Positions 9,436-53,921 are shown, counted from the stretch's first letter. The stretch: 64,000 nt of DNA from Bacteroidales bacterium (GCA_017647795.1 JAGCJX010000031.1:1428-65427); one strand, 5' to 3'. Translations and numbers: made by a program. The notes: generated by a model from the letters alone, not told the origin.

Positions 9436-9440
9436 CCATG

Positions 9441-12343: not shown

Positions 12344-12369
12344 ATATAACCATTTCCAACAAATACCGG

Positions 12370-14054: not shown

Positions 14055-14465
14055 TTACTTTTGGGTGGAGTCCCGGCGTGATTTTACCACACAAACGACA
14101 AAGGCCACTATTGCCCCCAACAGGATGACAGGTTCCGCCAGCATAAAAATGGGCATGGTACCCGATGTCAGCGTGACCAGGGTCGACGAAAGCAGGATCA
14201 GGCACACTCCTGAGGCCAGGAAGGTTAGACCGGTCCTGAGTCGGGGCTTTATCCGAGCGATGATCCAGGCGAACACACATACTGCCACCCCGATCAGCGG
14301 ATATAGCAGCAGCATACTGCGCGACATGGTGCCACTCGCATGGCCTTGAAGATCAAAATGTGCCGGAAGAATCTCCGGCAACGAAGCCCAGCTCAAAACA
14401 ATGGCCAAAACATTTACCACCACAACCAGCACTGGAATCCACCACAATCGTTTACTCATATTCAT
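14055..14465 (-). CDS. DUF1648-like membrane protein
   Basis: 136 aa with four hydrophobic helices and the N-terminal motif LPEILPAHFDLQGHASG. Confidence 0.6.
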   Translation of the reverse strand: MNMSKRLWWIPVLVVVVNVLAIVLSWASLPEILPAHFDLQGHASGTMSRSMLLLYPLIGVAVCVFAWIIARIKPRLRTGLTFLASGVCLILLSSTLVTLTSGTMPIFMLAEPVILLGAIVAFVVCVVKSRRDSTQK

Positions 14466-14715
14466 AAATTAGAGGGTTTTGCTACAAAGATACTCATTTT
14501 TCGGCATCGGTGACGGGAGATATATGGGCTTTGTAGACTATGCTCTGGCCATAGAGACTGCGCTCCGGCATTCTGAGGCGAGAACCCTATTTTTGAAATC
14601 TAAATTTTGACAAGTGCATGTCAAATTTATTGAAAATTGATTGATGTTTATGATATGTGGATATTATTCCCTAAATTTGATTGATAAAGTAAGAAGATTT
14701 TCAAATTACATATTT

Positions 14716-14976
14716 ATGGCAAAGGTAAACACTGCCGACGTCGGATTTGAAAAGCAAATCTGGAACGCGGCCGATGTATTGCGAGGTAGCATGGACGCTG
14801 CTGAGTACAAGCATGTTGTACTCGGTCTCATCTTCCTAAAGTATATCTCTGACAGATTTGAGACAAAATATCAGGAGCTTGTGAACGAAGGCTATGGTTT
14901 GGTAAGAACACTTGTTGAAGTGCTCAAGCCATATCATGGCCGTGTATACGACCCTGCCTGCGTGCCGTCGGCCTGA
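14716..14976 (+). pseudogene. type I restriction-modification HsdM remnant
   Basis: An HsdM N-terminus ([39 protein letters not shown]) is joined to the motif-I region (VYDPAC...) and then truncated. About 86 aa remain. Confidence 0.7.
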
Positions 14977-15075
14977 AACCCTTGGACCTTCTCCTCTTTG
15001 GATCCCTCTAAATTCGTTCGATTCCCCTTTACATTGAATTAAAATTTCGTTACCTTTGGCACCCGAATTTTGGCC

Positions 15076-15624
15076 ATGGTTAGTTTGAATAAAATATTCT
15101 GGATATTTGCCAAGATTGGTGCCTTCACCATTGGTGGTGGCATCCCCATGATTGCCGCCATCAAGAAGGAACTGGTAGAGCGGAAGTGGCTCACGGATGA
15201 AGATTTTGTAGACATCATCACCCTCGCCCAGACAGCTCCCGGACTCTTTGCCGTCAACATTGCGATCCTGACAGGACACCGACTTCGCGGCACCAAGGGC
15301 AGCGTGGTTGCTACCGTAGCCAGCTGTCTGCCTCCTTTCCTGATCATCCTGCTGGTAGCCATGTTCTTTACCACATTCAAAGACAATGAATACGTCATCC
15401 GTGCCTTCAAGGGAATCCGCCCGGTGGTGGTAGCCCTCATTGCTGTCCCCATGATGGACATGATCAAAGCCACCCGGATGCGGTGGTGGTCGTGGCTCAT
15501 TGTGCTATCCGCCATGTTGCTGGTCTGCTTCCTGAGTGTATCTCCAATCTACATCCTGATCTGTGTCATTGTCGTGGCTGCTTTCATCAGCTGGTACAAC
15601 AACAAAAAGGAGGTCCGCAAATGA
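15076..15624 (+). CDS. chrA: chromate transporter family protein (half-size, N-type)
   Basis: Motifs FAKIGAFTIGGG and AQTAPGLFAVN. The ATG at 15076 lies inside the listed ORF, and the stop overlaps the next start. Confidence 0.85.
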   Translation: MVSLNKIFWIFAKIGAFTIGGGIPMIAAIKKELVERKWLTDEDFVDIITLAQTAPGLFAVNIAILTGHRLRGTKGSVVATVASCLPPFLIILLVAMFFTTFKDNEYVIRAFKGIRPVVVALIAVPMMDMIKATRMRWWSWLIVLSAMLLVCFLSVSPIYILICVIVVAAFISWYNNKKEVRK

Positions 15625-16169
15625 TTTACGCAGAACTTTTCATGACCTTCTTCCTGATCGGCATGTTCACGATCGGTGGGGGCTACGCCATGCTCTCGCT
15701 GATCCAGAATGAAGTGGTAACCGTCCATGGTTGGATTACCGATGCCACCTTCACTGACATCGTTGCCATCTCCCAGATGACACCCGGACCCATCGGCATC
15801 AACTCCGCCACCTATGTAGGTTACGAAGTCCTCTCCCAGCAGGGAGCCTCCGAGTTCATGAGTATCCTCGGTTCCCTGACCGCGACCTTTGCGGTGGTAC
15901 TCCCCTCATTCATCATCGTATTGCTGCTTTGTAAAGTGTACGAAAAGTGGAAGGAACATTACCTGTTTCAAGGGATCCTGACGGGGCTGAAACCCGCCAC
16001 CCTGGGTCTCATCGGGACAGCTGCCCTCAGCCTGGCTACCCCCGAAAATTTCATTGACTGGAAAAGTTTTGCCATTTGCCTGATCGCCTTTCTAGCCTTG
16101 TATTTCAAGAAAGTCGGACCATTTGCTATCATTGGCCTCGGCGCCTTGGTCGGATTGTTGATTTATTAA
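15621..16169 (+). CDS. chrA: chromate transporter family protein (half-size, C-type)
   Basis: Motifs FLIGMFTIGGGYAM and SQMTPGPIGIN. The ATG at 15621 overlaps the upstream TGA. Confidence 0.85.
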   Translation: MIYAELFMTFFLIGMFTIGGGYAMLSLIQNEVVTVHGWITDATFTDIVAISQMTPGPIGINSATYVGYEVLSQQGASEFMSILGSLTATFAVVLPSFIIVLLLCKVYEKWKEHYLFQGILTGLKPATLGLIGTAALSLATPENFIDWKSFAICLIAFLALYFKKVGPFAIIGLGALVGLLIY

Positions 16170-16253
16170 CAAATACATTATTGATTTATTAACAAATAAT
16201 ACTATATTTGGCACCGAATTCAAGCATAGGGCTTGTAACGATGAACGATTGAC

Positions 16254-16634
16254 ATGAGTAGGCTGTTGCGATACCTGATTCCTTTCTTTGTGGTACTGGC
16301 TTTTGGCCTGGCCGCAGACAAGTCCGATTCAGCGAATCCGGAACCTGTTTCTCACCTCTCCCTCGTCGAGGATGGTGCCACATGGACCCTACTGAACACC
16401 CCCGAATCGGTACCGGCCGTGCCCCGTCAGATTTCAAACAGCAGATCGCTTTTGCGCTCCAATGCGCGAAGAACCGTCCCCTCGCAAACCCGTTCTCATG
16501 TCGAGATGACCCGGTCCGGAAAGTCGGTTCACGCCGAAGTTCCCAGTCTGTATCGGAGTCGTTCATCGATGTCAGATGTCTTTTATCGGGAACACATCCA
16601 CGAACTTGAGTTTATCTGCAAATTCAACATTTAG
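16254..16634 (+). CDS. hypothetical secreted Ser/Arg-rich protein
   Basis: Signal-peptide-like N-terminus and a TATATTTG box at 16203..16210, but low-complexity composition and no family. Confidence 0.35.
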   Translation: MSRLLRYLIPFFVVLAFGLAADKSDSANPEPVSHLSLVEDGATWTLLNTPESVPAVPRQISNSRSLLRSNARRTVPSQTRSHVEMTRSGKSVHAEVPSLYRSRSSMSDVFYREHIHELEFICKFNI

Positions 16635-16766
16635 AGGTAGTAAAACATATTTGTTTTATACTATTATCACTTTGTTTCCATTCCATTATGGAAAGTTCTT
16701 CAGTGTTTGTACACAGACAAACCACATTTTAATATGATTATTTAATACCTCTATTTACAACATTCT

Positions 16767-18524
16767 ATGTTACTTCAAATTTTAACCCTGGTAGGAGCTT
16801 TGGGCATGTTCTTGTATGGGATGAACATGATGAGTTCCGGATTGCAGAAGGCTGCCGGTGACCGGTTGCGCAATTTCCTCTCTGCAATGACCTCAAATCC
16901 GTTCAAAGGCGTACTGACAGGCCTTGGTATCACTTCTGTAATCCAGTCTTCCAGTGCTACCACGGTGATGGTGGTCAGCTTTGTCAATGCCGGCTTGCTG
17001 ACATTGGCACAAGCCATCAGCGTCATCATGGGGGCCAACATCGGCACGACCGTAACGGCCTGGCTCGTCTCTTGGCTGGGATTCAAGGCTGACATCTCCA
17101 TCCTGGCTGTACCGTTGATGGCTTTGGGATTTGTTTTTTCTCTTTCCAAGAAAGACAAAAGAAGAAACATCTCGGAACTGATTGTCGGTTTCTCCCTCCT
17201 CTTCTTGGGTCTTTCCCTGATGAAGAATTCCGTTCCTGACCTGCAACAGACCCCCGAAGTACTTTCGTTCATTCAAGGTTGGCAAGGACTCGGATTCGGT
17301 TCCGTGCTGATTTTCCTGGTGTTGGGTACTGTTCTGACCCTTGTCCTCCAATCTTCCAGTGCCACCATGGCGCTGACGCTCATTATGTTGAACATGGGAT
17401 GGATCCGGTTTGATATGGCTTGTGCCATGGTCTTGGGTGAAAACATCGGAACCACAATTACTGCCAACATTGCGGCGGCAGTGGGCAATACCCCGGCCAA
17501 ACGGGCAGCCCTTGCACACACCATCTTCAACGTCTTTGGCGTAATTTGGGCCCTGATCGCCTTCCCGGTATTCCTCCGCCTCATCGGCTGGATTACTGCC
17601 GGTGTTTTCGGCGTTCCCAATCCGGCGGCTGCAGATTTCACGGTAGAAGTGCTTCACGATGCCAACGGACTTCCCATACAGACAGACTCGCAGACAGCGG
17701 CTTTGTACGGATTGTCCATGCTTCATACCTTATTCAATACCATCAATACCTGCATCTTGATCTGGTTTATTCCAGCAATTCAAAGACTGGTGTGTGCCAT
17801 CATCAAGGAATCCGCAAAAAAGAGCGAAGAGGTATTCCGTCTCAAATACATCGAAGCCGGTCCGCTTGCCACTCCGGAGCTTGCAACCGAACAAGCATTC
17901 AAGGAAATCATTCATTTTGCTGAGATTTCACGCAATGGAATGCTGTATGCCCAAGAAGCCATCCTGACGTCGGAGACTGACAAATTTGAAGAACTCAGGA
18001 CCAAACTGGTCAAGTACGAGGAAATCTCAGACCGTATAGAAGGCGAAATCGCTTCGTTCCTGAATGCCGTGTCCGCCTCAGACATCAGCGAGGAGACATC
18101 CCGGAGGATCAAGGCTATGTACAAAATCATCGGCGAACTCGAGTCATTGGGTGACTCTGGAGAATCGATCAGCCGCATCCTTTCCCGCAGAAACATCCAT
18201 AAAAAAATCTTCGATGAAGCTACACTCAAAAACCTAGAAAAGATGAGTGGAGAAATCCTGTCGGCATACGACGCCATGATCTCCAACCTTTCTGCTGCTT
18301 ACAATGGTACCCTGACAGAGGTGTCGAATGCGTACAATGCCGAAGGCCGCATCAACAACCTCCGTAATTACTTGCGCGATGCTGAGATCGAAAGTTTCGA
18401 GAGCGAATCGAAAAATTATCAGACCAGTGTATATTACCTAGATATCATTGGAGAACTCGAAAAAATGGGCGATTTTATGATCAATATTTCGCAGGATCTT
18501 GAAAAAGCATTCATAAAACATTAA
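16767..18524 (+). CDS. Na/Pi cotransporter family protein with C-terminal PhoU-like repeats
   Basis: 585 aa with duplicated motifs (QSSSATTVM / QSSSATMAL, GANIGTT / GENIGTT) and a helical PhoU-like tail. Confidence 0.9.
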   Translation: MLLQILTLVGALGMFLYGMNMMSSGLQKAAGDRLRNFLSAMTSNPFKGVLTGLGITSVIQSSSATTVMVVSFVNAGLLTLAQAISVIMGANIGTTVTAWLVSWLGFKADISILAVPLMALGFVFSLSKKDKRRNISELIVGFSLLFLGLSLMKNSVPDLQQTPEVLSFIQGWQGLGFGSVLIFLVLGTVLTLVLQSSSATMALTLIMLNMGWIRFDMACAMVLGENIGTTITANIAAAVGNTPAKRAALAHTIFNVFGVIWALIAFPVFLRLIGWITAGVFGVPNPAAADFTVEVLHDANGLPIQTDSQTAALYGLSMLHTLFNTINTCILIWFIPAIQRLVCAIIKESAKKSEEVFRLKYIEAGPLATPELATEQAFKEIIHFAEISRNGMLYAQEAILTSETDKFEELRTKLVKYEEISDRIEGEIASFLNAVSASDISEETSRRIKAMYKIIGELESLGDSGESISRILSRRNIHKKIFDEATLKNLEKMSGEILSAYDAMISNLSAAYNGTLTEVSNAYNAEGRINNLRNYLRDAEIESFESESKNYQTSVYYLDIIGELEKMGDFMINISQDLEKAFIKH

Positions 18525-18603
18525 TAAGTTTAATTGTTTTAGAAAAAATATGTACGTAAATTCGTACGTTCAAATTTTAATTAACCAACTAACTATTTAA
18601 GTT

Positions 18604-20643
18604 ATGCTTAAATTAAGAAAACTTTCTTGGACCTTGTTGGCCGTTTTAGGCCTTGGTCTTGCTGTGTCTTGTGAAGAAGACAAACCCACTCCTGAGCCCA
18701 CACCCGAGGCTCCCGTCATTACCTTGAACATGACTGAAATCGATGCACCTAAGGAAGGCAACACCTATGCGGTGGAATTTTCCATCACCAATCCCATAGA
18801 AGGTGTAAGCGCATCCATCGCAGTTCCCGAAGTGCAATGGATTTCCGGTGTGGATACTTCTATTGATGGTATCGTTAAATTTGACGTACTTGCCAACACC
18901 GTTGTAGAAACTCGTGAAGCAACCTTTACCGTTTCTTATGAAGGAGCTGCCGATGCATCTTTTGTTGTAAGACAAGCTGCTGGTGACCCGGAAGCGTTTG
19001 TATTCTCTAACCTGCAAGCCGGCATTGATGCATATACCGTTGAAGTAGCTCCTGCAGACAAACAAACCCCCTACATTTACTTCTCTTCTACTTTGGAATA
19101 CATTGAAGAAAGTGGTCTCCAAGATGACGAAGCTTTGTTCCAAGACGATATGGAATTTTTTGTCCTCTTGGCTGATATGTATGGCTATAGCTTGGCGGAT
19201 GTCCTGCAAATGTACACCTTGGTTGGTGACCAAACCCTGAGCAGCGATGGATTGTCTCCCAAAACAGACTATGTTGCTTACGTTTACCACATCAACCTTG
19301 AAACCCAAGAACGTTTGAGCGACATCGCTCGTTGCAATATCCGCACGGCTGAGATGGAACTGGAACAAATCAACTTTGATGTTGACTTTGATATCCAAGG
19401 CCCCATTGTAACCGTAACCATTACTCCGGAAAATTATGATGGTCACTACTTCTGGGATGGTGTCCCGGTACTTGATTATGAAGCACAATATCCCGATATG
19501 GAACTTGCTGACTATGCAATTTCTAACTGGTTGAGCTACGTTAACTTGTACTTGTCTTACGGTATTCCCCTTGAAGAATTGCTTGCATTGTGTCCTCAAG
19601 GTGTTTTCACCAATACCCTCACCAACATGAATGCAGAAACCGAATATGCATTCTATGTAATGGCCATTGATAGCGAAACCGCATACCCGATTTCAGAACC
19701 TGTTATTGAAAATGTAACGACTGGTTCCGTAGAAACGTCTGACCTCGTTGTTGATATCGAAATTTCAGAAGTTGGTTCAACCACAGCGGTTGTAAGCTAC
19801 GTTGCAAGCAACGATACGGATCCTTATGTTGCTACCGTTATCGACCAACAAACTTTCAACGAATTGGGTACTACCGACGAAGAAAGAATGGACTACCTGG
19901 TAACTTACTACTATGTTTCTACCTTTATGGGTTCTCTCATCGATCAAAACATGTCTGGTCTGACTCCCGAAACGGACTACTATGCAATTGCATTTGGTTT
20001 CGTAGGTGGTGTTGTCAATACCGACTTGTACAAAGCTGAATTCACTACTGGTGAAGCTGTTTTGGCTGAGTGCACCATGTCAGTAGAAATCGGTGATTAC
20101 TACGATGCTGATGCAGTGATCGCTCTTGACTCGTATTTCGCTGGTTACGAAGGTATGGCATTCGTTCGGATGGCTGCTTCAATCGAAGGTGAATACACTG
20201 AATACTACTACGGTGTTTATGAAGATGATGGCGCAACTTATTCCGACATGGAATGGATTGGTTATTTGACTCAAAACTATCCTAAGACTGCCCTCGAAAC
20301 ACTTTATGTATTGGATTTCGACATGCCGTTTATCTTTGTAGGTGTAGCAAAAGATGCTGCAGGTAACTATGGTCCTGTTTGCACCCAAACCTTCACCCTC
20401 AGCAGAGATCAAGTATCTGATCCCGAAGATTTGCTGGAATGGTGGTATTCTGATGCACAACCCCGTCGTCAAATGGTTGCTACCGATCAAATGACCAAAT
20501 GCGAAGACTTCTTCGGTTTGAAGAAAGCAGACGCTCCGATCGTTTACGAAAGACAAAACGCTGTAGTAGACTTGAATGCTCCCCTCACTTTCCGTGAGTT
20601 CAAAGCCATCGAAACCAACAAGTTTACAGAAAAAACCCGCTAA
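18604..20643 (+). CDS. acidic surface lipoprotein with BACON-like N-terminal Ig domain and three repeated modules
   Basis: Lipobox LAVSC. A BACON-like segment ends FVVRQAAG. Three modules each carry L(S/T)P(K/E)TDY..., MNAETEY... signatures. Codon usage differs from neighbouring genes. Confidence 0.7.
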   Translation: MLKLRKLSWTLLAVLGLGLAVSCEEDKPTPEPTPEAPVITLNMTEIDAPKEGNTYAVEFSITNPIEGVSASIAVPEVQWISGVDTSIDGIVKFDVLANTVVETREATFTVSYEGAADASFVVRQAAGDPEAFVFSNLQAGIDAYTVEVAPADKQTPYIYFSSTLEYIEESGLQDDEALFQDDMEFFVLLADMYGYSLADVLQMYTLVGDQTLSSDGLSPKTDYVAYVYHINLETQERLSDIARCNIRTAEMELEQINFDVDFDIQGPIVTVTITPENYDGHYFWDGVPVLDYEAQYPDMELADYAISNWLSYVNLYLSYGIPLEELLALCPQGVFTNTLTNMNAETEYAFYVMAIDSETAYPISEPVIENVTTGSVETSDLVVDIEISEVGSTTAVVSYVASNDTDPYVATVIDQQTFNELGTTDEERMDYLVTYYYVSTFMGSLIDQNMSGLTPETDYYAIAFGFVGGVVNTDLYKAEFTTGEAVLAECTMSVEIGDYYDADAVIALDSYFAGYEGMAFVRMAASIEGEYTEYYYGVYEDDGATYSDMEWIGYLTQNYPKTALETLYVLDFDMPFIFVGVAKDAAGNYGPVCTQTFTLSRDQVSDPEDLLEWWYSDAQPRRQMVATDQMTKCEDFFGLKKADAPIVYERQNAVVDLNAPLTFREFKAIETNKFTEKTR

Positions 20644-26930: not shown

Positions 26931-27797
26931 ATGATGACCTTGAAAATTAAAAACAGATTGTTGCAGGACCGCCTGATGTTATGGGGCGTATGCCTGTTCG
27001 CTGCGCTGACGGCAGTACCGCTGCTCGCCATCCTGGGAGAAGTGCTGCTGCGTGGTTATGACCAGCTCTCGTGGTCGTTTTTTACCGAACCGACTCCTAC
27101 AGCCTACAAGGCAATGAAAGCCATCGAAGCCGGAGAACGCATTCCCGGCGGGATTGCAAACGGCATCATCGGGACGATGATCATGTTGGGCATGGCGGTG
27201 GTGTTTGCCGTTCCTGCCGGTATTTTGTGCGGAGCCTATTTGTCTGAACACCCCAAAAACCGTTTTGCCAAGGCCGTCAGTTACCTGACAGACTTGCTGC
27301 AAGGAACCCCCTCTGTAATCATCGGCATCATCACCTACATCTGGGTGGTCGTACCCATGAAAGGATATTCGGCCATTGCCGGCAGTGTCGCCTTGTTCAT
27401 TATGATGCTGCCACTGATCATCCGTTCTACCGAAGAAACCCTGAAAATCCTTCCGGCCTCGCTCAAGGAAGCCGGCCTGGCCCTGGGCGGAAACAAGGCC
27501 CGGGTCATGATGAAGGTGCAGCTTCCCGCGGCCTTTGGCGGGATCTTTACCGGTGTGTTGCTTGCCATTTCCCGCGTGATTGGAGAAACGGCTCCCCTGA
27601 TGTTTACCGCCCTGGGATGCTCCCTGATCCGCTTCTCTGTTGACAAACCCATTTCTGCGGTCCCCTTGCTCATCTGGGAGTTCTTCAACGACCCCTACCT
27701 GCAGGAACTCATCTGGGGAGCCTCCCTCTTCCTGCTATTGTTTGTACTTACGTTAAATATTTTATCCAAATACCTAGCTAAAAAATGGAATCAGTAA
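26931..27797 (+). CDS. pstA: phosphate ABC transporter permease PstA
   Basis: Permease with the motif KEAGLALGGNKARVMMKVQLP. Confidence 0.9.
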   Translation: MMTLKIKNRLLQDRLMLWGVCLFAALTAVPLLAILGEVLLRGYDQLSWSFFTEPTPTAYKAMKAIEAGERIPGGIANGIIGTMIMLGMAVVFAVPAGILCGAYLSEHPKNRFAKAVSYLTDLLQGTPSVIIGIITYIWVVVPMKGYSAIAGSVALFIMMLPLIIRSTEETLKILPASLKEAGLALGGNKARVMMKVQLPAAFGGIFTGVLLAISRVIGETAPLMFTALGCSLIRFSVDKPISAVPLLIWEFFNDPYLQELIWGASLFLLLFVLTLNILSKYLAKKWNQ

Positions 27798-28552
27798 CCC
27801 CTATCCTTGAATTCAAGAAAACTTGTGTTTCCTATACCAAACAAACCATGGCTGTCAAATATGTGTCAGCAGCCATCGAACGGAACACCATCACGGCCAT
27901 TATGGGACCTTCGGGATGTGGAAAATCAACGTTGTTGCGTGCGGTAAACCTGATGCACAACCTCTATCCGAACATCCGCGTGGATGGTGAGATTCTGTTG
28001 AATGGCGAAAACATCCTCTCGATGGAACCGATCGATGTGCGCCGTCGAGTGGGGATGGTCTTCCAGCGTCCGGCCCCCTTCCCGACCATGAGCATCTACG
28101 ACAATGTGCTGTCAGGATTTGCGTTGAATGGCATCAAACTCACCAAAGCGGAGAAGGATGCCACGGTCGAACGGTGCCTGCGCAGTGTAGCCCTCTGGGA
28201 CGAAGTGAAAGATGTGCTCAACAAAAAGGGAACCTTTCTCTCCGGCGGTCAACAGCAACGGTTGTGCATAGCCCGGGCTCTGGCCATGAAACCGGATGTC
28301 CTGCTGATGGACGAGCCGACCTCTGCCCTTGACCCGATTGCCACCAAGCACATTGAGGAACTCTTGTTGCAATTGCAGAAGGAGGTGACCATCCTGATCG
28401 TTACCCATAACATGGGACAGGCAAAGCGCATATCTTCCAAATCCATGTTCATGTACCTGGGTGAACTGGTCGAATACGGAGACACCGAAACCCTGTTTAC
28501 CGAAGCGACGGACGAACGGACCAAGGCTTATCTGACGGGAAAAATGGGGTAA
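27785..28552 (+). CDS. pstB: phosphate ABC transporter ATP-binding protein
   Basis: Walker A GPSGCGKST, signature LSGGQQQR and Walker B LLMDEP. Confidence 0.95.
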   Translation: MESVTPILEFKKTCVSYTKQTMAVKYVSAAIERNTITAIMGPSGCGKSTLLRAVNLMHNLYPNIRVDGEILLNGENILSMEPIDVRRRVGMVFQRPAPFPTMSIYDNVLSGFALNGIKLTKAEKDATVERCLRSVALWDEVKDVLNKKGTFLSGGQQQRLCIARALAMKPDVLLMDEPTSALDPIATKHIEELLLQLQKEVTILIVTHNMGQAKRISSKSMFMYLGELVEYGDTETLFTEATDERTKAYLTGKMG

Positions 28553-47236: not shown

Positions 47237-48022
47237 TTAAATATCGGCTTCTTTCAAACGGTATAGCTCATCCAGGAAGTGGATTTGCATCGAACCATTG
47301 CCCCGAGCCAGAGCGGCAGCCCGTTCGCCGGCCAAACTCATCACGGCCATGGCCGCTGTAGCCGCTTCCATCGGATCTGCGACAACGGCAGCAAATGCGC
47401 CCACGAGGGCTGTAGAGGTACAACCCATGCCGGTTACAGCCGTCATGATGGGGTGTCCGCCTTCGACCGTATGAACCCGCGTTCCGTTGGTGATGTAGTC
47501 CGTTTCACCACTGATTACCACGACGGCACCGGTCTCCAATGCAAGGATTTTGGCGGCCTCCAAGGCATCGTGGCTCGTCGCACTGCTATCTACCCCTTTG
47601 CTGCGGATGTCGGAGTTGACCAAGGCCATGATTTCACTGCCGTTTCCCCGGATGATGGTGGGATGGCAACGACGGATGAGTTCCCAGGCCGTTGCTGTCC
47701 GTTGGCTCGTTGCTCCGGCCCCGACGGGATCCAGAACAATCGGGGTTCCACGACGGGATGCGGCAAGTCCAGCCGCCAACATGCCTTCGATCCATTGGGT
47801 ATCCAAGGTACCGATGTTGATGACCAGCGCACCCGCAATGGCGGTCATTTCTTCCATCTCATCGACCCAATGGGCCATGACAGGAGACGCACCAATGGCC
47901 AAAAGCGCATTAGCTGAATTGTTCATAACTACGTAATTGGTAATGTTGTGCACGAGAGGACCCTGGGCCCTCACTGATGCAATCGCTGCCCGAAGAGCAG
48001 CTTGCGAAATGGATGTTTTCAT
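47237..48022 (-). CDS. thiM: hydroxyethylthiazole kinase
   Basis: Carries the ThiM motifs VHNITNYVVMN, IRGNGSEI and TGMGC. Confidence 0.9.
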   Translation of the reverse strand: MKTSISQAALRAAIASVRAQGPLVHNITNYVVMNNSANALLAIGASPVMAHWVDEMEEMTAIAGALVINIGTLDTQWIEGMLAAGLAASRRGTPIVLDPVGAGATSQRTATAWELIRRCHPTIIRGNGSEIMALVNSDIRSKGVDSSATSHDALEAAKILALETGAVVVISGETDYITNGTRVHTVEGGHPIMTAVTGMGCTSTALVGAFAAVVADPMEAATAAMAVMSLAGERAAALARGNGSMQIHFLDELYRLKEADI

Positions 48023-48025
48023 AAT

Positions 48026-48106
48026 TGTTTCCCTGCGCTGTTATTAAACATATCAGGTTCGAGGGTATGATCTCAGCCAAGCAAACGTGCTCAGCACCCC
48101 TAACAG
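48026..48106 (-). promoter_or_regulatory. TPP (THI-box) riboswitch C
   Basis: The minus strand reads GGGGTGCTGAGC..GCTGAGATCATACCCTCGAACCTGATATGTTTAATAACAGCGCAGGGAAACAATT. The aptamer's 3' end abuts the thiM ATG. A TACATTTG box lies at 48112..48119. Confidence 0.85.
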
Positions 48107-48155
48107 CTATGCAAATGTACGGATTTTTTCTGGCAATCCTAATTTTCCAGACGAA

Positions 48156-48599
48156 TCATCGCAAGACCAGCCGTCTGTAAAATGCCAGCAGGTAGCGTCG
48201 GACCGGTTTCAATCGGAACCACAGTTTCGCGCGATGACGGTGCCGGTCTGTCAGGCAGTCAATACGATGCCCTGCCCGGAGGATGACGCCTACTTGCGCT
48301 ACCACGTCGGCCAAAGTGCAACGTTCTACCCCAACGCAGTTCCCGTCACCCATCAAGGTCAGTTCTGTTCCCCGAATTTCAATGATCCGGTGCATTACAC
48401 AGGCACTTCCGATGCGCGCCAAGACGATGTCAAACTGCTGCAATTTTCCGGCAGGAACGAGTTCCACGGCATCCACGCCACCCCGGATAAAAGGATGCAT
48501 GCTGTTGCCCTTGGCCGTAATGACAACGGGCTTTCCGGCGGCCACCAAATGGGCTACTTCGGCAAAGAGGACTTCGTTGGCTATGATTCTCTTTTCCAT
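48156..48599 (-). CDS. S24/S26-like peptidase, apparent Ser/His (SipW/archaeal-like) variant
   Basis: The nucleophile motif is AKGNSMHPFI. The position of the LexA-type general-base Lys reads His (CVMHRII). There is no N-terminal TM segment, and the gene overlaps the upstream gene by 19 nt. Confidence 0.65.
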   Translation of the reverse strand: MEKRIIANEVLFAEVAHLVAAGKPVVITAKGNSMHPFIRGGVDAVELVPAGKLQQFDIVLARIGSACVMHRIIEIRGTELTLMGDGNCVGVERCTLADVVAQVGVILRAGHRIDCLTDRHRHRAKLWFRLKPVRRYLLAFYRRLVLR

Positions 48600-49450
48600 G
48601 TTTCACCTTCGGTTACGGCCGTAGCACAAACATAAGCTGCCTCGTCATTGGGCAAACAAGCCAAATGATAAAAAGGCACATGAGTCAACAATTCGTTGAT
48701 GACCTTGCTTACGGCATCGTACAAGGTGGAGTCGTAAGCAAATTCGGGTGGACAAGAAGGATGGATGGCTCCGTACGCCTGCAAGACCTTGAGCGGTTTG
48801 ACTTGGTTGTAAGGAGCTTGGGAGAGGCGGATACAAGCCTTCAAAGCATAACGCTCTGCTTTGTAACAAGGTGTTTTCCCACTCCAGGGACTCCCGTAAA
48901 CCCAGACCATTCCCTCCTCGACCCGCAGGATGGGACTGTCATCGTTCAGAAGAAAAGAGCCCTCAATGTGTTCGCGCCACAAGCGGGTATGCGTACTCTT
49001 TCCCGTCCCGCTCTCGCCCAAAAACAAAAATGCTTGCTCGCGGTACACGATGCAGCTGCTGTGCACCGCCAAGGTAAGTTCCGACAGGGTCATTAGGCCA
49101 TAACCCACCCACAAGGCAAACCGGATGAGACGGGCCTCAAAATTACCAGAGAGAAATACTTCACGCTCCCCTTCACTGCACCACATCGTAAGTACTTCCC
49201 CTTCTTCCGGCTGCAGTGACAGCCGATAGCCGCGGTCGGTGCGGCCAAAGATGCCCAGCACTCCCTCTGTATCAAAGCGGTATTGTTCTGCCTGCAATGC
49301 GGGAGCAGCTTCGCCTTCTCGAAAGCAGAAGGCGAATGCCATCGCCTCGGTCAGAAAGGGACGAAACCCCGCAAGGCCACCAACTACGGAGCACAAACGA
49401 TCGCCCACAACCGCAAACGGATGTCCTGCTATTTGATACTTCAACTCCAT
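48581..49450 (-). CDS. HPr-kinase C-domain-like P-loop protein (HprK-related)
   Basis: Carries a P-loop, LFLGESGTGKSTHT, followed by LLNDD. It is 289 aa and lies 11 nt downstream of the PqqD-family gene. Confidence 0.65.
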   Translation of the reverse strand: MELKYQIAGHPFAVVGDRLCSVVGGLAGFRPFLTEAMAFAFCFREGEAAPALQAEQYRFDTEGVLGIFGRTDRGYRLSLQPEEGEVLTMWCSEGEREVFLSGNFEARLIRFALWVGYGLMTLSELTLAVHSSCIVYREQAFLFLGESGTGKSTHTRLWREHIEGSFLLNDDSPILRVEEGMVWVYGSPWSGKTPCYKAERYALKACIRLSQAPYNQVKPLKVLQAYGAIHPSCPPEFAYDSTLYDAVSKVINELLTHVPFYHLACLPNDEAAYVCATAVTEGETWKRES

Positions 49451-49461
49451 TTGTGTCCGGC

Positions 49462-49728
49462 TTATTCGATTACCTCACATTGTTTCAGGGCCTCTACCCA
49501 TTTCCCTGCATCGCAAAGAGCCTGTTCGTGTTCCAGGCCGTAGGTCTCTTCCAGGATGTACGCAGCCTCCTCCAAAGAGAACTCCTTGCCTTCCAACTCG
49601 CAGAACAGCAGCCGTGCCGAGGAGTTCAAGGAGATGATACGTGTCAGGTTGATGTTGGAGGTACCTTGGTTTACAACGATAGCCTCTCCTGCAATTTCAC
49701 GGAGTTTGAAATGTGCTTTGATTCTCAT
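49462..49728 (-). CDS. PqqD-family protein (RiPP recognition element-like)
   Basis: An 88-aa protein with the pattern REIAGEAIVVN...LNSSARLLFCELEGKEFSLEEAAYIL...DAGKWVEALKQCEVI. Confidence 0.75.
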   Translation of the reverse strand: MRIKAHFKLREIAGEAIVVNQGTSNINLTRIISLNSSARLLFCELEGKEFSLEEAAYILEETYGLEHEQALCDAGKWVEALKQCEVIE

Positions 49729-49751
49729 GCTTGTAATCTTGGGTCTTTATG

Positions 49752-49787
49752 AATACAAACCTTGCTGCCCCGAAGGGGACAGCAAGG
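49752..49787 (-). terminator. strong stem-loop terminator after the 870-aa lipoprotein gene
   Basis: The minus strand reads CCTTGCTGTCCCC-TTCG-GGGGCAGCAAGG, a 12-bp stem with one bulge and a UUCG loop, followed by TTTGTATT. Confidence 0.6.
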
Positions 49788-49814
49788 CTCCTATCTAGTT
49801 GTTTCGTTCTTATC

Positions 49815-52427
49815 TTAGAACATTTCGTTGGCTGAGATTACCCACCAGTCTACATCTTCTTGGTAATCTTCCAAGTTTTCAATGTGGTAGTAGTAGAGGC
49901 CTTCATCGTAAGCCACCATTTCTTCTACGGTTTCGATCAAGTCGATCAATGCATCGTAAACTTGGAGCAATCTTGCTTTTTCGAAGAGTTCGATGCAAGT
50001 ATTCCAGTTCAACAATTTCTTGAAGATACCCCAAGGACCGTTGTTCAAGTCTGCGATGTTTGCTTCGTTGGTTGCGTTGAAGCTGTTTTCAACCAAGGTC
50101 AACGCTTCAACACGAGCTTCGATCAACGCATTGGTTTTCGCAGCGAGGATAGCAGCACGTTTGAGGTCTACGTTCTCACCGTCAATCAAGTCTTTGGATG
50201 CATCTTCGATTTCAGTAACGATGGTACGGAGAGATTCTTTCACCATGTTCATGAAGGTTTCTTGACTGAAGATGTAAGTCAGGAATCGTGATGAAAGTGA
50301 AGTCGGATCTTCTACGATACCTTCCAAAACTTCTACCAATGATTTGCTGCGGATGTCTTGAATAGCCGTATTGAGGGCAGCTCTTGCAGCAGCAATGATT
50401 GCAGAGTTTTCGTTCAGATTGTTGCTGATTTGATCCATGATGCCGTTGTATGCATCGGTTGCGTCACCCAAGAAGGTGGTCGGATCCACTTCGAAGTCGA
50501 TTACGTAGTTGCCACCAGATACGGTTTCGTCATTTTCATCAAACAAGTTTTCTACGAATTTGTATGCAACATTACCAACGACCGGAATATTTTTCAACCA
50601 ACTCATATCCACACTCGCAAGAATGTTTCTGATTGAAAGGCTCAAATCCGGTACCAATGTTTGGAATTGAACTTTAATTTTGGGAAGGGCGTTTACTTTA
50701 TCTTTGATTACAGCTACGTCGTTGAGGGAATCCAATTCGCCTTGGAATTGCTCAGCTTTGACAACAAAGTCGTTCAACGAAGCTTGCATATCAGCCACAT
50801 CTTCTGCTTCCACCAATGCAGTCGGTTGCAAAGCAGCGATGAGGGCAGTAAAGTACTCTTTGTATCGGCTTTCTTCCAATTTTTGACGAATAGAAGCTTT
50901 GGTTTGGTTGAAGCGTTCAATTGCAGCGTTGATTTCGTCAATGTTTTCTACATAAGCATCAATGGTAGAGAGAGCCGATTTTGCAGCGCTAATTGAACTG
51001 GTCAATTTTGTGTTCAAAGAACTCTTGAATGCATCGATAGCATCTTGGGTATCGTATTCGGGTTCTTCCAATTTGTTGTTTCCGTTGATGAAGTCGTCAA
51101 TCAAAGTGTCAATGTTCAACAACATTTCATCTACAGCCGCATCCAATTTACCTTGAATACCGGTTCCTTGGTAGATTTTTTCAAATTCAGAAAGGAAGTT
51201 CAAGAGTGAAGGAATATCGTTCACCAATTCCAGGTCATCCAACATAGATTGCAAGTAGCTCATACCGGTGTAGTCCACTTTTTGGATGAAGCTACCGTAT
51301 GCTTCGAAACGTTTCACGTCTTTTGTAAAGCCGGGGATACCACCCAATACTTCGTAAGCCGCTTTGTAGTTTTTCAAGGCAAGGTAAGCAACAGCTTCTT
51401 CGATCACCATCTTGATGTTTTCTTCAGCTTTCAAGTTGTTGATCCATTCTTCGATGTTAAGGTTGGTTACACAAGGGATGATGCGTTCACCGTCCATATA
51501 GGCACCGGCTTTGGCACGGATCCACAAATCAACAGCTTTGGTACCGCTCACTTCGAAAGTTCTAGCACTGAAGGTACGGCTCTTAGAACGAGTGAAGGTA
51601 TTTTCTGCAGTAATTTCTGTTTCAAAGAAGTTACCTACAGTGTCATAGAAACGAATCACCAAGTCATTGGCAGCGTAAGTACCGGGAGCCAAAACGAAGG
51701 TGAAGTTGGTTGCTTCGGTTTCGCTCAATTGAACGCCTTCGCCGCAAGACATTTCTACGATATCAGAACCTCTTTCAGATACTTCTGCCATGGGAAGCCA
51801 TCCTTCTGCAGCTGCAGCGGTGATGGTAACAGCACCAGCGAGTTTGGTGTGTGATTTGCTTTCCAAAGTAGCATAGGTAATGATTTCAGTACCGTACAAA
51901 GGCATTACCAAGAAGCTACCTACGTTTTTGAAAGCGAAGTCCAAAGTAGCATCTACAGCAACCATCGGAGAAGCGCCTTGACCGAATGAGTTCTTGCCAT
52001 AAGATTGGTAAACCGGAATCTCAGTGTTGATCAAATAGTCATCACCTTCTTTTACTACGGTGGTGTTTTCGTTGTACGGGTAAACACTTACGTTCATGAA
52101 TTCACGTTGTTGTTCGGTAGAGAAGTTCATCTCACCAGCAACGAATTTGAAGTCAGCGCGGGTTGAACCGGCACCGTTGCTCAACACCCATTGAGAGTGA
52201 GCAGTGTTGGAAGTAAAGAGGCTGATTTCATCTTGTGCAGACCACAGCACTTTAAATCCGTTTTCAGTACGTTCCATTTCGGTACGTGTTTCGGGCATAT
52301 CGCCCAAGGAAGCAGTCACCACAGCATCAGCTGCGTTCGGTTGACCTTCCAAAGTGTATTCTTCCATCTGACAAGAAGTCAGCAAGCCCATTGAAAGAAT
52401 ACCCAATGCTAAAAAGATTTTTCTCAT
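49815..52427 (-). CDS. 870-aa lipoprotein with a fimbrillin/Mfa-like N-terminal domain and a long acidic alpha-helical C-terminal region
   Basis: Lipobox LLTSC. The N-terminal roughly 300 aa show a fimbrillin-like pattern (VLWSAQDEISLF, ADFKF, VSVYPYN, LDFAFKNVGSFLVMPLYG, KLAGAVTI). The remaining roughly 560 aa are helical with heptad-like character. The gene is AT-richer than its neighbours. Confidence 0.7.
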   Translation of the reverse strand: MRKIFLALGILSMGLLTSCQMEEYTLEGQPNAADAVVTASLGDMPETRTEMERTENGFKVLWSAQDEISLFTSNTAHSQWVLSNGAGSTRADFKFVAGEMNFSTEQQREFMNVSVYPYNENTTVVKEGDDYLINTEIPVYQSYGKNSFGQGASPMVAVDATLDFAFKNVGSFLVMPLYGTEIITYATLESKSHTKLAGAVTITAAAAEGWLPMAEVSERGSDIVEMSCGEGVQLSETEATNFTFVLAPGTYAANDLVIRFYDTVGNFFETEITAENTFTRSKSRTFSARTFEVSGTKAVDLWIRAKAGAYMDGERIIPCVTNLNIEEWINNLKAEENIKMVIEEAVAYLALKNYKAAYEVLGGIPGFTKDVKRFEAYGSFIQKVDYTGMSYLQSMLDDLELVNDIPSLLNFLSEFEKIYQGTGIQGKLDAAVDEMLLNIDTLIDDFINGNNKLEEPEYDTQDAIDAFKSSLNTKLTSSISAAKSALSTIDAYVENIDEINAAIERFNQTKASIRQKLEESRYKEYFTALIAALQPTALVEAEDVADMQASLNDFVVKAEQFQGELDSLNDVAVIKDKVNALPKIKVQFQTLVPDLSLSIRNILASVDMSWLKNIPVVGNVAYKFVENLFDENDETVSGGNYVIDFEVDPTTFLGDATDAYNGIMDQISNNLNENSAIIAAARAALNTAIQDIRSKSLVEVLEGIVEDPTSLSSRFLTYIFSQETFMNMVKESLRTIVTEIEDASKDLIDGENVDLKRAAILAAKTNALIEARVEALTLVENSFNATNEANIADLNNGPWGIFKKLLNWNTCIELFEKARLLQVYDALIDLIETVEEMVAYDEGLYYYHIENLEDYQEDVDWWVISANEMF

Positions 52428-52497
52428 TGCTAAAAAAGATAGTTTATCAGTTAATTTCTTTTACGAGTCTCTAGGAATTGAGTCCTGTTTGCGCCGA

Positions 52498-52620
52498 CTA
52501 GCCTTGTCCTTCTTCGTCTTCAACGAATTCATTGCTGGCAGCGAAGCCTTTCTCAACTTCAACTTCTACGACTTCCACGAAGGGAACTTCGTAAGTTTCA
52601 ACAAAATTTTTCTTTACCAT
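52498..52620 (-). CDS. unlisted 40-aa acidic ORF (MVKKNFVETYEVPFVEVVEVEVEKGFAASNEFVEDEEGQG)
   Basis: Hand-translated, with ATG at 52620 and TAG at 52498. It lies 70 nt upstream of the lipoprotein gene on the same strand. A TATCTTTG -7 box lies at 52714..52721. It is below the ORF-track size cutoff. Confidence 0.4.
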   Translation of the reverse strand: MVKKNFVETYEVPFVEVVEVEVEKGFAASNEFVEDEEGQG

Positions 52621-52713
52621 AATTACATGTAATATAAATAGTTAATACAGATTTACCCTCTCGAGTTATCTTCCAATAAAATATATGATTTTACACAAGC
52701 CAATAATTAGGTG

Positions 52714-52721
52714 CAAAGATA
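52714..52721 (-). promoter_or_regulatory. candidate -7 promoter box (TATCTTTG) for the small ORF / lipoprotein unit
   Basis: Matches TAnnTTTG on the minus strand about 90 nt upstream of the small-ORF ATG. Confidence 0.35.
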
Positions 52722-52961
52722 TACAATCTTTTCTCTTTAAAACAATAAATTTAACAAATTATTCCCCCCTCTCAACAGGCCCTCAATAAAATCCTTTTTC
52801 GAATTCGAAAACAGTCTGATTACGAATAATCCACATTCATAAATTCCGAATAATCAAATCATAAAATAATCAAAATCCTGCCCTTGCAGATTACAAATTC
52901 AAAATAGTCTATCCGAATTCTGTACCGAAGCCGTATTTTTGCGGTGTGAAAACGAAACACA

Positions 52962-53075
52962 CGCTCACAGGACACGCTGCGGCCTTCATCGCCTATGCCA
53001 TTTTTGATTTCAACATCATCGTCTGCAAGGACTTGACCCCCCCCCATTTATACGATGTTTGTAGCCGGCTGGGTG
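52962..53075 (+). pseudogene. remnant of a DMT (EamA) transporter gene, paralogous to 31926..32846
   Basis: The sequence ...GGACACGCTGCGGCCTTCATCGCCTATGCCATTTTTGATTTCAACATCATCGTCTGCAAGGACTTGACC parallels 31950..32020. A 9-C run follows, and then the TTTATACGATGTTTGT block of 32250. Confidence 0.7.
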
Positions 53076-53089
53076 TTCGGTCGAAACAC

Positions 53090-53615
53090 AATACAAAGCA
53101 ACCGTAGACGAGCTCAACTTCTCCGATCCCCAATTCGTCGCCAATCGCATCAACCAATGGTCCAAACAGCAAACCGAAGGGAGCATCCGCGAACTGTTGG
53201 ATCCCAAGGTTGTCACACCGGCCACGGCTGCCTTTCTGATCAACGCCCTCTATTTCCTGGGCGAATGGGAGGGTACGGCTCAACAGCCGATGTTTCTGAG
53301 CGACAACACCCGGACGCAGGACTTTTACCGGGCCGACGGTTCAACCTGTGCGGTGGAAATGATGTCCAACAAACGCGAACACCGGTATGCAGAATTGGAT
53401 GGTTTTCGGGTGCTGGAACTTCCCTATGCCGGGGCTGATTGACGTGTATGAACAACTGCCCAAGTTGACCGGATGTTTGTAGCCAAGGCAACCACCGCCT
53501 TTCGCCCGCAGGAGCGCAAGCAGGTCCATTTCTACGCCGACCATCCCTTCCTGTTCCTCCTCGGTGACCTCCACGGAAATGTGCTATTCCAAGGGGCATT
53601 TGTAGGAGGAAATAG
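53090..53615 (+). pseudogene. remnant of a serpin gene, paralogous to 32843..34117
   Basis: The translation FSDPQFVANRINQWS...INALYFLGEWEGTAQQPMFLSDNT...LELPYAG ends at a stop. After a deletion it resumes as AFRPQERKQVHFYADHPFLFLLGDLHGNVLFQGAFVG. Confidence 0.8.
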
Positions 53616-53921
53616 GTGGCAGAGGGCCGCGATGGGATCGTAGAACAACATACGGGGGCCGGCCCAACGCATGATCTTACGAATCTCTTCCCGCATCGAC
53701 GGCTTGTAGCAATGGATTGGGCACTTCTTGCAGGCCGGTTTCTTCTCTCCAAACTTGCAGTACGAGAGGCGTTTGTGTGCATACTCCTCCAACGCCCGGT
53801 ACTCCTCGTTCATCTCCTTCATCCCCAACTTGTGGCGACAATACAAGGCAATCATCTTGCTCACGACTTCCTTCTCGCGTGCGATGCGGGTGTTTTTCTT
53901 CGATTTCTTATGTTTCGACAT
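53532..53921 (-). CDS. nitrous-oxide-stimulated-promoter (YgbA-like) family protein
   Basis: Cys-rich pattern in YCRHKLG...CKFGEKKPACKKCPIHCYKPSMREEIRKIMRWAGPRM. The C-terminal tail reads into the serpin remnant. Confidence 0.65.
   Translation of the reverse strand: MSKHKKSKKNTRIAREKEVVSKMIALYCRHKLGMKEMNEEYRALEEYAHKRLSYCKFGEKKPACKKCPIHCYKPSMREEIRKIMRWAGPRMLFYDPIAALCHLFPPTNAPWNSTFPWRSPRRNRKGWSA

Follow-up and report, generated by a model that had tools for sequence, protein, structure and literature searches.

A Bacteroidales operon of lasso-related enzymes, a short acidic peptide and a surface lipoprotein: a candidate pathway for the maturation of a linear peptide

The five-gene module

Here we describe a five-gene module that lies on the minus strand of a 64,000-nucleotide stretch of DNA from a Bacteroidales bacterium (GCA_017647795.1, JAGCJX010000031.1:1428-65427), the whole of which is called the window below. 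In the direction of transcription the module encodes a peptide of 40 residues, a large surface-type lipoprotein, a PqqD-family protein, an HPr-kinase-like protein and a Ser/His peptidase-like protein (Table 1), with intergenic gaps of 70 nt between the peptide and lipoprotein genes, 86 nt between the lipoprotein and PqqD genes and 11 nt between the PqqD and kinase genes, and with an overlap of 19 nt shared by the kinase and peptidase genes. These open reading frames (ORFs), their strand and coordinates, the 11-nt gap and the 19-nt overlap had been read before from the sequence of the window (referred to as the original prediction), and all of them are borne out here. We consider it fairly probable that the module is the reduced version of a peptide-maturation operon that is widespread in Bacteroidales, is assembled from lasso-peptide parts, has no cyclase and no B2 protease, and would carry out the leader-guided phosphorylation and the leader removal of a linear peptide.

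Table 1. Features of the module and of its borders; positions are counted from the first nucleotide of the window
Feature	Position	Strand	Remarks
Precursor-like micro-gene	52498..52620	-	40 aa, net charge -8
Surface-type lipoprotein gene	49815..52427	-	870 aa, signal peptide and lipobox LLTSC
PqqD-family gene	49462..49728	-	88 aa, predicted stand-alone recognition element (RRE) of peptides made by the ribosome and modified after translation (RiPPs), lasso B1 type
HprK/PEPCK-superfamily P-loop kinase-like gene	48581..49450	-	289 aa
Sec11/SipW-like (S26B) Ser/His peptidase-like gene	48156..48599	-	147 aa
Stem-loop	49752..49787	-	15-bp stem and UUCG tetraloop, followed by UUUGUAUU; lies after the stop codon of the lipoprotein gene and before the start codon of PqqD
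Upstream non-coding region with candidate Bacteroidetes-type -7 element TATCTTTG	52621..52730	-	fits TAnnTTTG
Thiamine pyrophosphate (TPP) riboswitch	48013..48111	-	Rfam RF00059, 59.2 bits versus gathering score 54.3, E = 4.9e-10

The 40-residue peptide family

The product of the micro-gene, MVKKNFVET-YEVPFVEVVEVEVEKGFAAS-NEFVEDEEGQG, consists of a leader-like conserved block followed by a variable acidic tail. Similar small ORFs were first seen in the neighbourhoods of the kinase homologues. The loci that are compared here and below are 80 kinase-centred genome loci, all of Bacteroidales, together with 7 metagenome loci and the window, giving 88, and a reciprocal scan from the peptide gave 55 further metagenome loci; the related loci number 142. 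It is noted that many of these loci are redundant or cut by contig ends, that the peptide-centred ones are dominated by two human-gut lineages and are not independent, and that the peptide scan, which used a six-sequence alignment, is biased to EVEVEKG-type peptides from two abundant species. With a local profile, 23 copies of the peptide gene were found in 21 of the 88 loci. The family consensus is M-(3-15 aa)-Y-E-[AS]-P-x-V-E-[VI]-x-E-V-E-V-E-[KQ]-G-F-A-x-S with a tail of 6-23 aa behind it, where Y10, P13, V22, E23, G25 and S29 are invariant in the alignment and the conserved N-terminal block can be abbreviated as YxxPxV…EVEVEKGFAxS, with the start Y..P.[VIL] being invariant. The tails are rich in Gly, Asp, Glu, Asn and Pro, have a mean charge of -3 and are essentially devoid of Cys, and an aromatic residue is present among the last four positions in 31 of the 38 distinct copies.

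The conservation of the family can be seen at both the nucleotide and the protein level. For 38 distinct 60-nt blocks, 79% of the single-nucleotide codon differences are synonymous, compared with 23% expected, and the variability is 0.42 at the third codon position versus 0.17 at the first and 0.11 at the second, which argues that the reading frame of the micro-ORF is under purifying selection. A profile search that covered 1.84 billion representative proteins gave 1,109 representative clusters at E <= 1e-3, nearly all of 33-50 aa. The motif is present in 149 of the best 150 library representatives, of which 145 have Ser, 3 have Thr and 1 has Cys at the S29 position, and in the locus-derived copies this position is Ser or Thr in 38 of 38. 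An upstream ORF or a chance ORF is ruled out by the synonymous/non-synonymous pattern together with the size of the family. Judged from these patterns, the micro-ORF is a genuine gene, the family of which is under strong purifying selection and combines a conserved putative leader with a hypervariable tail. The original prediction had pointed to this ORF, which was missing from its gene list, and to the lipoprotein as the only plausible substrates nearby; of these two, the peptide is now the better supported.

The start of the conserved block resembles the leader of lasso precursors, where YxxPxL is a conserved motif at positions -17 to -12 (PMC10368454). Similarly, the Tyr of the peptide is located 17-18 residues ahead of the boundary between the conserved and variable parts. 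The lasso precursor rule asks for YxxPxL, for Thr (or Ile/Val) at position -2 and for a core with Gly/Ala/Ser/Cys1 and Asp/Glu7-9. Measured against it, the element Y..P.[VIL] is present, while a conserved Thr at position -2 is not, nor do the tails show an acidic residue that is fixed at positions 7-9 of a defined core.

The three enzymes

At the superfamily level, the family calls that the original prediction made for the three enzymes all hold when checked with profiles and, for the kinase, by fold. The PqqD protein scores 31.9 bits against Pfam PF05402 (gathering cut-off 23.4) with the whole profile covered. The best solved structure for the profile of its family (36 members) is TfuB1 (6jx3_B, fusilassin B1; E = 1.2e-5, residues 33-86), i.e., the B1 protein that binds the leader of fusilassin, a lasso peptide. 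By these matches the protein is a lasso B1-type RRE, for which the binding of a leader is predicted, with indirect support from the YxxPx[LV] motif of the co-encoded peptide and from the co-occurrence of the two genes.

For the kinase-like protein, the invariant residues are H130, G145-E-S-G-T-G-K-S152 and N169-D-D171, with the P-loop GESGTGKST at residues 145-153, and the family has more than 7,400 relatives. The order of the motifs, H...GxSGxGKS...DD, matches that in the HprK/P active site. The AlphaFold2 model of the protein (predicted local distance difference test, pLDDT, 88.8; predicted template-modelling score 0.87) matches, in Foldseek, ATP-dependent PEP carboxykinase (PEPCK) with E of about 1e-8 and HprK/P (1knx, 3tqf, 1kkl and 1jb1) with E = 5e-6 to 3e-4, so that the P-loop kinase fold is shared with both; neither the N-terminal domain nor the genomic context has to do with carbon catabolite control. 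The window kinase has a score of 14 bits against HprK_rel_A (cut-off 200), and its relatives score 12-25 bits against HprK_rel_A, ScmC (TIGR04249) and hpr-ser, the cut-offs of which are 125-240. The score is at most 17 bits for hpr-ser TIGR00679 (cut-off 240) and 13.9 bits for Hpr_kinase_C (cut-off 33.3). The kinase profile has no HprK match among the PDB sequences. A local match there to the trypanosomatid ribosomal protein L35Ae (5t5h_l; residues 169-216, 48 residues, E = 2.9e-4) is probably a chance similarity, though it was ranked above every true kinase in this sequence-only search. No transmembrane segment is predicted. On the evidence of the modelled fold, we place the protein within the HprK/PEPCK superfamily of P-loop kinases, as a branch of its own that falls in no curated family, with a predicted phosphorylation activity. 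The earlier description as an HPr-kinase C-domain-like protein stands in terms of superfamily, fold and motifs, but not in terms of the curated HprK-related models (TIGR00679, TIGR04352, TIGR04355, TIGR04249 and PF07475), for all of which the scores are below the cut-off.

The peptidase-like protein was described before as S24/S26-like, with Ser and His and without the Lys of the LexA type. The Ser-His part of the description and its guess of an S26 (SipW-type) domain are supported by the alignment with Sec11, whereas the S24 part is not. In an alignment of 34 sequences, G31, S33, M34, P36, H70, R71 and G84-D85-G86 are invariant, which includes residues of the GNSM motif at 31-34 and His70 within HRI, the latter being invariant across the family. 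Against the PDB, the profile finds SEC11C (7p2q, E = 1.4e-5) and SEC11A (7p2p, E = 5e-5), the catalytic subunits of the human signal peptidase, with the Ser, the His and the GDxN aligned. The window protein scores 16.1 bits against Peptidase_S24 (Pfam, cut-off 23.3) and 22.3 bits against sigpep_I_arch (NCBIfam, cut-off 51.85); among its homologues, that of locus L083 passes the cut-off of Peptidase_S26 (25.4 versus 22.9) and that of L022 has 21.8. No hydrophobic segment is present (maximum KD19 of 1.57, in a stretch with charged residues). The protein is, from its aligned motifs and composition, a predicted soluble Ser/His peptidase domain of the Sec11/SipW type (S26B). With the S26B signal peptidases (Sec11, SipW and the archaeal SPase I) it shares the catalytic-core motifs GxSMxP, HR[IV] and GDxN, which align and are invariant, and it has His where the bacterial S26A and the LexA-type S24 enzymes have Lys. 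Unlike them, it has only 147 aa and no membrane anchor or signal sequence, is encoded in an operon of cytoplasmic enzymes, and is sometimes fused with the kinase or with a VanZ-like domain.

The fusion with the kinase is found in L022 and L082, where the two proteins form one full-length protein. It is noted that L022 (CAVHVD010000039.1, 15..4357) is a PqqD-NTP-ABC-kinase::peptidase cluster of the Bacteroidales type on a contig binned as Faecalibacterium prausnitzii; its kinase is about 50% identical to that of the window, and the contig is probably mis-binned. The other fusion, a C-terminal VanZ-like (PF04892) multi-pass membrane domain on an S26B-like peptidase, occurs in L033 (1959..2780), L035 (10647..11480) and L083 (10883..11695), which are the loci examined that have PqqD, kinase and peptidase without an exporter. 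The window peptidase has no such domain. The VanZ-like fusion may be an alternative way of coupling the processing to the membrane.

The operon in related loci

In its full form the operon has the order peptide, variable surface lipoprotein, PqqD, NTP_transf_5 nucleotidyltransferase, ATP-binding cassette (ABC) exporter, kinase and peptidase. The peptide-centred loci that have enough downstream flank all show this seven-gene order, with a lipoprotein gene of about 3.3 kb, except for L099, where the peptide is truncated, and L103. Among the 88 loci, the peptidase gene is immediately after the kinase gene or overlaps it in 81, 62 have, directly upstream of the kinase gene, a gene for an MsbA/PglK-like half-transporter (ABC_membrane plus ABC_tran; about 564 aa), 45 have PqqD and 25 have NTP_transf_5. 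Arranged by gene content, 33 loci, mostly of Alistipes and placed among housekeeping genes, have ABC-kinase-peptidase, 9 have PqqD-ABC-kinase-peptidase, the window and 8 others have PqqD-kinase-peptidase, and the remaining loci have peptide...PqqD-NTP-ABC-kinase-peptidase and permutations of it. The invariant core is the kinase plus the peptidase (sometimes fused), not PqqD.

The peptide gene tracks PqqD: it occurs in 19 of the 45 loci with PqqD versus 2 of the 43 without it (Fisher p = 3e-5, for loci that are not phylogenetically independent). In three loci (L025, L049 and L061) the peptide gene adjoins the PqqD or the kinase gene, with no lipoprotein gene in between, which favours the peptide over the lipoprotein as the substrate.

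With the profiles of the relatives, neither a nucleotidyltransferase nor an orthologue of the dedicated exporter is found in the window, where the only ABC-like match is a generic ATPase at 27785..28552 (109 bits versus a family median of 796). The PqqD, kinase and peptidase genes, considered before as a self-contained orphan triad, are thus instead the reduced form of a larger operon that normally includes NTP_transf_5 and the ABC exporter. This reduced form is stably inherited. Four other samples contain the unit of five genes intact, with products of 870/871, 88, 289 and 147 aa besides the peptide, and near-identical module proteins cluster from many assemblies.

Note also which lasso functions are missing. 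No cyclase of the asparagine-synthetase type with a PP-loop (SGGxDS) is found in the window or in any kinase-centred locus, no cyclase family occurs among the recurrent neighbour clusters, and the fixed seven-gene order of the peptide-centred loci leaves no room for one. There is no recurrent neighbour cluster of the transglutaminase-type B2 protease, the gene order being filled by other families, as judged from the clusters and not from a dedicated B2 profile search. Radical S-adenosylmethionine (SAM) and ATP-grasp enzymes are absent among the Pfam-nameable recurrent neighbour clusters, which are housekeeping or surface proteins, with several clusters unmatched or unscanned and with no direct radical-SAM or B2 search of the rest of the window. 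The statement of the original prediction that the window has no cyclase and no dedicated exporter is confirmed by the PP-loop search and the profiles of the relatives. The comparison of neighbourhoods across Bacteroidales, which it proposed, gives no lasso cyclase and no recurrent B2-like gene, and it shows that a candidate substrate close by is linked in a conserved manner. The reading of the locus as a truncated lasso cluster is ruled out, since the related loci have no cyclase and no recurrent B2-like gene; for the same reason the product cannot be a lasso.

The lipoprotein and the hairpin

The lipoprotein starts with a signal peptide and the lipobox Cys19, followed by acidic QMEE. It has an N-terminal domain of about 260 aa, which is common to other peptide-linked lipoproteins, and an unrelated C-terminal part of about 570 aa, in which there are only weak coiled-coil-type Pfam matches (residues 428-736). 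The N-domain is homologous to the lipoproteins encoded after the peptide genes in L001, L013 and L014. It is only this domain, of about 170-260 aa, that the peptide-linked lipoproteins share, and their C-termini differ, being LRR_5 (BspA-type leucine-rich repeat), Pectate_lyase_5 (pectate-lyase-like adhesive domain), GLUG or, in the window, the weak coiled-coil-type region. In the kinase-centred set, the peptide gene is followed on the same strand by a gene for a 355-1274-aa lipoprotein, at a distance of -9 to 170 nt, in about 15 of the 21 evaluable cases. In all loci, counted with their redundancy, a protein with the N-domain is encoded within 400 nt after the peptide gene for 49 of the 67 evaluable peptide genes. 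The N-domain is present in only 11 of the 80 kinase-centred genome loci.

The structural model of the N-domain is of low to moderate confidence (pLDDT 61). Its sole significant fold match is the Bacteroides fragilis 'putative cell adhesion protein' BF1858 (3t2l, E = 5.8e-5, TM 0.37-0.39), the match to Mfa4 (E = 0.12) not being significant. The lipoprotein has no Pfam Mfa_like_1 match, and the N-domain profile finds nothing among the PDB sequences. A 'fimbrillin-like' N-domain is a tentative lead from a model, not a result.

Two loci differ from the usual arrangement of the peptide and lipoprotein genes. In Bacteroides intestinalis (L017, NZ_CABJDN010000004.1, 552..20139) three peptide genes with different tails and two copies of the kinase gene are found within 20 kb, where two of the peptide genes each precede a different large lipoprotein gene and the third is at the edge of the locus, giving the look of several cassettes. 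In L003 the peptide gene (13740..13874, minus strand) is on the opposite strand to the neighbouring module genes, between two Mfa_like_1/lipoprotein genes, and is an exception to the usual co-directional order.

Between the lipoprotein and PqqD genes, the stem-loop of the window has a folding energy of -31.1 kcal/mol (z = -5.77), and none of 200 shuffled sequences folds as well. It is real and strong, as the original prediction had claimed, but it is not a feature of this locus only. Of 61 distinct loci, 26 have a hairpin of -20 kcal/mol or lower in the 160 nt upstream of PqqD, versus 13 of 122 random controls; the sequences of these hairpins are unrelated between lineages, and many have U-tracts. 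The hairpin of the window is an instance of a recurrent positional feature, a candidate terminator or attenuator between the structural and the enzyme genes. Operons for bacteriocins and RiPPs are commonly arranged in this way, with an expression of the structural gene far higher than that of the enzyme genes. The scan for promoters and terminators missed this strong hairpin because its U-tract is weak, and its sigma-70 promoter part is uninformative for Bacteroidetes. About 100 nt upstream of the ATG of the peptide gene, TATCTTTG fits the consensus of the -7 element and is a candidate only.

Discussion

Based on the above results, the following pathway can be proposed. The 40-aa product would be the substrate, with its conserved N-terminal block serving as the leader that is bound by the B1-type PqqD protein via the YxxPxV element. 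The HprK-like kinase would then phosphorylate a hydroxyl residue, for which S29, the Ser/Thr at the junction of leader and tail, is the best candidate because only Ser or Thr (and one Cys in the 150 library representatives) is found there. The soluble Sec11/SipW-like peptidase would cut off the leader near the GFA-x-S junction. Signal peptidases prefer small residues at positions -3 and -1, and G25/A27 or A27/S29 fit this preference. In the full operons, the phosphate may further be decorated by NTP_transf_5, as by PsmN in pseudomycoidin (PMC8498205), and the short, linear, acidic and Cys-free peptide may be secreted by the half-size ABC exporter. In the window, since the nucleotidyltransferase and the exporter are missing, the product would only be phosphorylated and trimmed, with no dedicated exporter. 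The peptide and lipoprotein genes would form a promoter-proximal pair, which the hairpin sets off from the enzyme genes, whose products are needed in catalytic amounts only.

Several points weigh against this pathway. Firstly, the kinase is below the cut-off in every curated family model and its top fold matches are PEPCK rather than HprK, so that a phosphoryl acceptor other than a protein is possible; similarly, the window peptidase itself is below the Pfam and NCBIfam cut-offs. Secondly, the characterised lasso kinases phosphorylate a C-terminal Ser, whereas the tails here usually end with W, F or Y; as these peptides have no C-terminal Ser, the target of the kinase must differ from that of the lasso kinases. 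Thirdly, 33 loci, mainly of Alistipes, have the exporter, kinase and peptidase only, with no PqqD or peptide gene within 10 kb, and in these the substrate is a different one or is not linked. Fourthly, a simple secreted RiPP does not account for the near-constant pairing of the peptide with a lipoprotein, and with no exporter in the window copy a secreted product is not assured. Finally, every step of the pathway, including the sites of phosphorylation and cleavage, is inferred from sequence.

The pairing leads to a first alternative, namely that the enzymes mature the adjacent lipoprotein, by phosphorylating or trimming its N-terminal region before or during export, with the peptide acting as a chaperone, a regulator or a donor strand. 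If this were true, the position of the lipoprotein gene between the peptide and PqqD genes in most full operons would be readily understood, the conserved N-domain could provide a common recognition target, and an enzyme of the signal-peptidase type would be an obvious candidate for acting on an exported protein. However, all three enzymes are predicted to be soluble and cytoplasmic, and lipoproteins are exported unfolded by Sec. Moreover, in three loci the enzyme genes follow the peptide gene with no lipoprotein gene in between, the lipoproteins encoded after the peptide genes do not all share the N-domain, which is rare in the kinase-centred genome loci (11 of 80), and RREs of the PqqD type are known to bind short leaders, a peptide with the right motif being present here. 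We regard this alternative as unlikely.

A second alternative also makes the lipoprotein the partner of the peptide. Here the strand-prone block of the exported peptide, with its alternating V and E, would bind the fimbrillin-like N-domain of the cognate lipoprotein by beta-strand complementation, and the enzymes would regulate or license the pairing at the surface. Pairs of peptide and lipoprotein genes recur even away from the enzyme genes (L017), the hypervariability of the tail and the variation among the lipoprotein C-termini point to co-diversification, and the single significant fold match of the N-domain is a Bacteroides cell-adhesion protein, with Mfa4 next at a non-significant score. 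This has to be set against the pLDDT of 61 of that model, the weak fimbrillin assignment and the absence of a Mfa_like_1 match, and the lasso-type leader motif in the conserved block would be left unexplained. Its likelihood is low in our estimation.

Just as low is the likelihood that the window copy is a decaying remnant, the five genes of which became non-functional after the loss of the nucleotidyltransferase and the exporter. It is true that in most relatives PqqD is accompanied by NTP_transf_5, the ABC exporter or both, and that the adjacent upstream region has decayed, as seen from remnants of serpin and EamA genes. However, the five ORFs are intact and keep every residue that is invariant in their families, and the finding of the intact unit in four other samples, with near-identical proteins from many assemblies, argues against simple decay. 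In addition, at least 8 PqqD-kinase-peptidase loci without an exporter are known from other lineages, often with a VanZ-fused peptidase, which suggests a functional alternative design.

The last alternative, that the kinase, peptidase and exporter act on a non-peptide or unlinked substrate and that the proximity of PqqD and the peptide in Bacteroidaceae is secondary, would agree with the 33 loci where the trio stands alone among housekeeping genes, with the PEPCK fold matches and with an exporter nearer to the MsbA/PglK-type lipid or glycan flippases than to bacteriocin exporters, but it is very improbable given that the order peptide...PqqD-NTP-ABC-kinase-peptidase is fixed, on one strand and with overlaps, across several families, that the peptide gene adjoins the kinase gene in L049 and L061, and that a serine protease of the signal-peptidase type implies a peptide substrate.

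The pathway of leader-guided phosphorylation and leader removal can be compared with known systems. In lasso clusters, homologues of HPr kinase phosphorylate a Ser of the linear precursor, and the product of the N gene adds a hexose to the phosphate (PMC8498205). The clusters of the phosphorylated or phosphoglycosylated lasso peptides, such as paeninodin and pseudomycoidin, are composed of A, C, B1, B2, N, D and K and come from Firmicutes and Proteobacteria. Like them, the operon described here has a stand-alone PqqD/B1 protein and a leader that starts with YxxPx[LV] 17-18 residues before the variable part, and encodes together an HPr-kinase-related kinase, a nucleotidyltransferase of the NTP_transf_5 type and a half-size ABC exporter. 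Unlike them, it has no cyclase (C) and no B2 at the 142 loci (B2 by neighbour clusters, with no dedicated profile), has a soluble Sec11/SipW-type Ser/His peptidase in the position of the protease and has a large surface lipoprotein gene after the precursor gene, with N and D also missing in the window copy.

Likewise, an HprK-related P-loop protein is found beside a PqqD homologue in the SynChlorMet (ScmC, TIGR04249/PF27840) and HprK_rel_A/PqqD_rel_X (TIGR04352) cassettes of Haft, which are presumed to modify peptides, and some members of the kinase family here have weak precomputed matches to PF27840. By contrast with Haft's families, the present proteins score 12-25 bits, versus cut-offs of 125-200, and are not members. 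These HprK-related cassettes, which come from other phyla, include radical-SAM/SPASM or ATP-grasp enzymes.

The components are of known kinds and what appears to be new is their combination, i.e., a B1-type RRE and an HprK-like kinase with or without N and D, together with a soluble Sec11-type peptidase in place of B2 and with no cyclase. To it belongs the dedicated family of acidic, Cys-free precursors that is paired genetically with variable surface lipoproteins. The combination was not found in the literature, where only papers on lasso peptides and a survey of Bacteroidales RiPPs devoted to radical-SAM and GG-motif clusters came up; the search covered few papers in subscription journals, so that a prior description is possible. 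We see here a probable RRE-dependent RiPP pathway related to the lasso clusters, with a substantial chance of its being a new RiPP class. The wider proposal is that Bacteroidales have an undescribed and very abundant group of short, linear, acidic and Cys-free RiPPs, made by a lasso-derived toolkit with a cytoplasmic Sec11/SipW-type peptidase instead of B2 and forming cognate peptide-adhesin pairs; it is more tentative, and we would put it somewhat below an even chance.

If it is true, the class would comprise over 1,100 clusters of precursors and over 7,000 homologues of the kinase, those of dominant human-gut Bacteroidaceae included. If the proposed pathway is right, gut Bacteroidales, which are among the most abundant human symbionts, would have a large family of modified peptides, for the most part overlooked by annotation pipelines. 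It would further mean that the recognition and tailoring modules of lasso biosynthesis are reused without the formation of a lasso, that a soluble enzyme of the signal-peptidase type joins the RiPP leader peptidases, and that small modified peptides are tied to hypervariable surface lipoproteins that shape colonisation and strain competition. Handles for experiments are offered by the one invariant Ser/Thr, the defined leader motif, the natural kinase-peptidase fusions and the variants with and without the nucleotidyltransferase and exporter.

Annotation and neighbouring features

In the NCBI annotation (MBO7279464-67) only PqqD has a name ('PqqD family protein', MBO7279466.1), and the kinase-like protein, the peptidase-like protein and the lipoprotein are each a 'hypothetical protein'. 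In the source metagenome-assembled genome, neither an NCBI name nor an NCBI accession came up for the micro-gene; the exact 40-aa peptide was retrieved only from JGI, Logan and ENA, as a 'hypothetical protein'. An anti-phage defence system is ruled out, because none of the five module proteins has a match among the defence-system models of PADLOC-DB.

On its downstream side the module is followed directly by a thiamine operon (thiM, a thiE-TenA fusion, thiL-like and thiD). The TPP riboswitch heads this operon; it lies outside the module and sets the 3' boundary of the latter. It slightly overlaps the longest-ORF start (48022) of the first thiamine gene, and hence the true start codon of that gene is probably further downstream.

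On the upstream side, the region 52946..53613 (plus strand) contains deletion remnants of two genes, i.e., aa 116-235 and 351-392 of a 392-aa serpin, with 97-100% identity, and aa 1-31 and 108-118 of an EamA transporter. The sister strains L143 and L144 have both genes whole and directly upstream of the peptide gene, and a serpin gene is near the module also in L006 and L007. The window ORF at 53532..53921 (minus strand) is syntenic with the 106-aa YgbA_NO (PF11756) gene of L143 and L144. A 180-aa ORF at 53240..53782, which overlaps both this ORF and the serpin remnants, is a gene call in L145 but is probably spurious.

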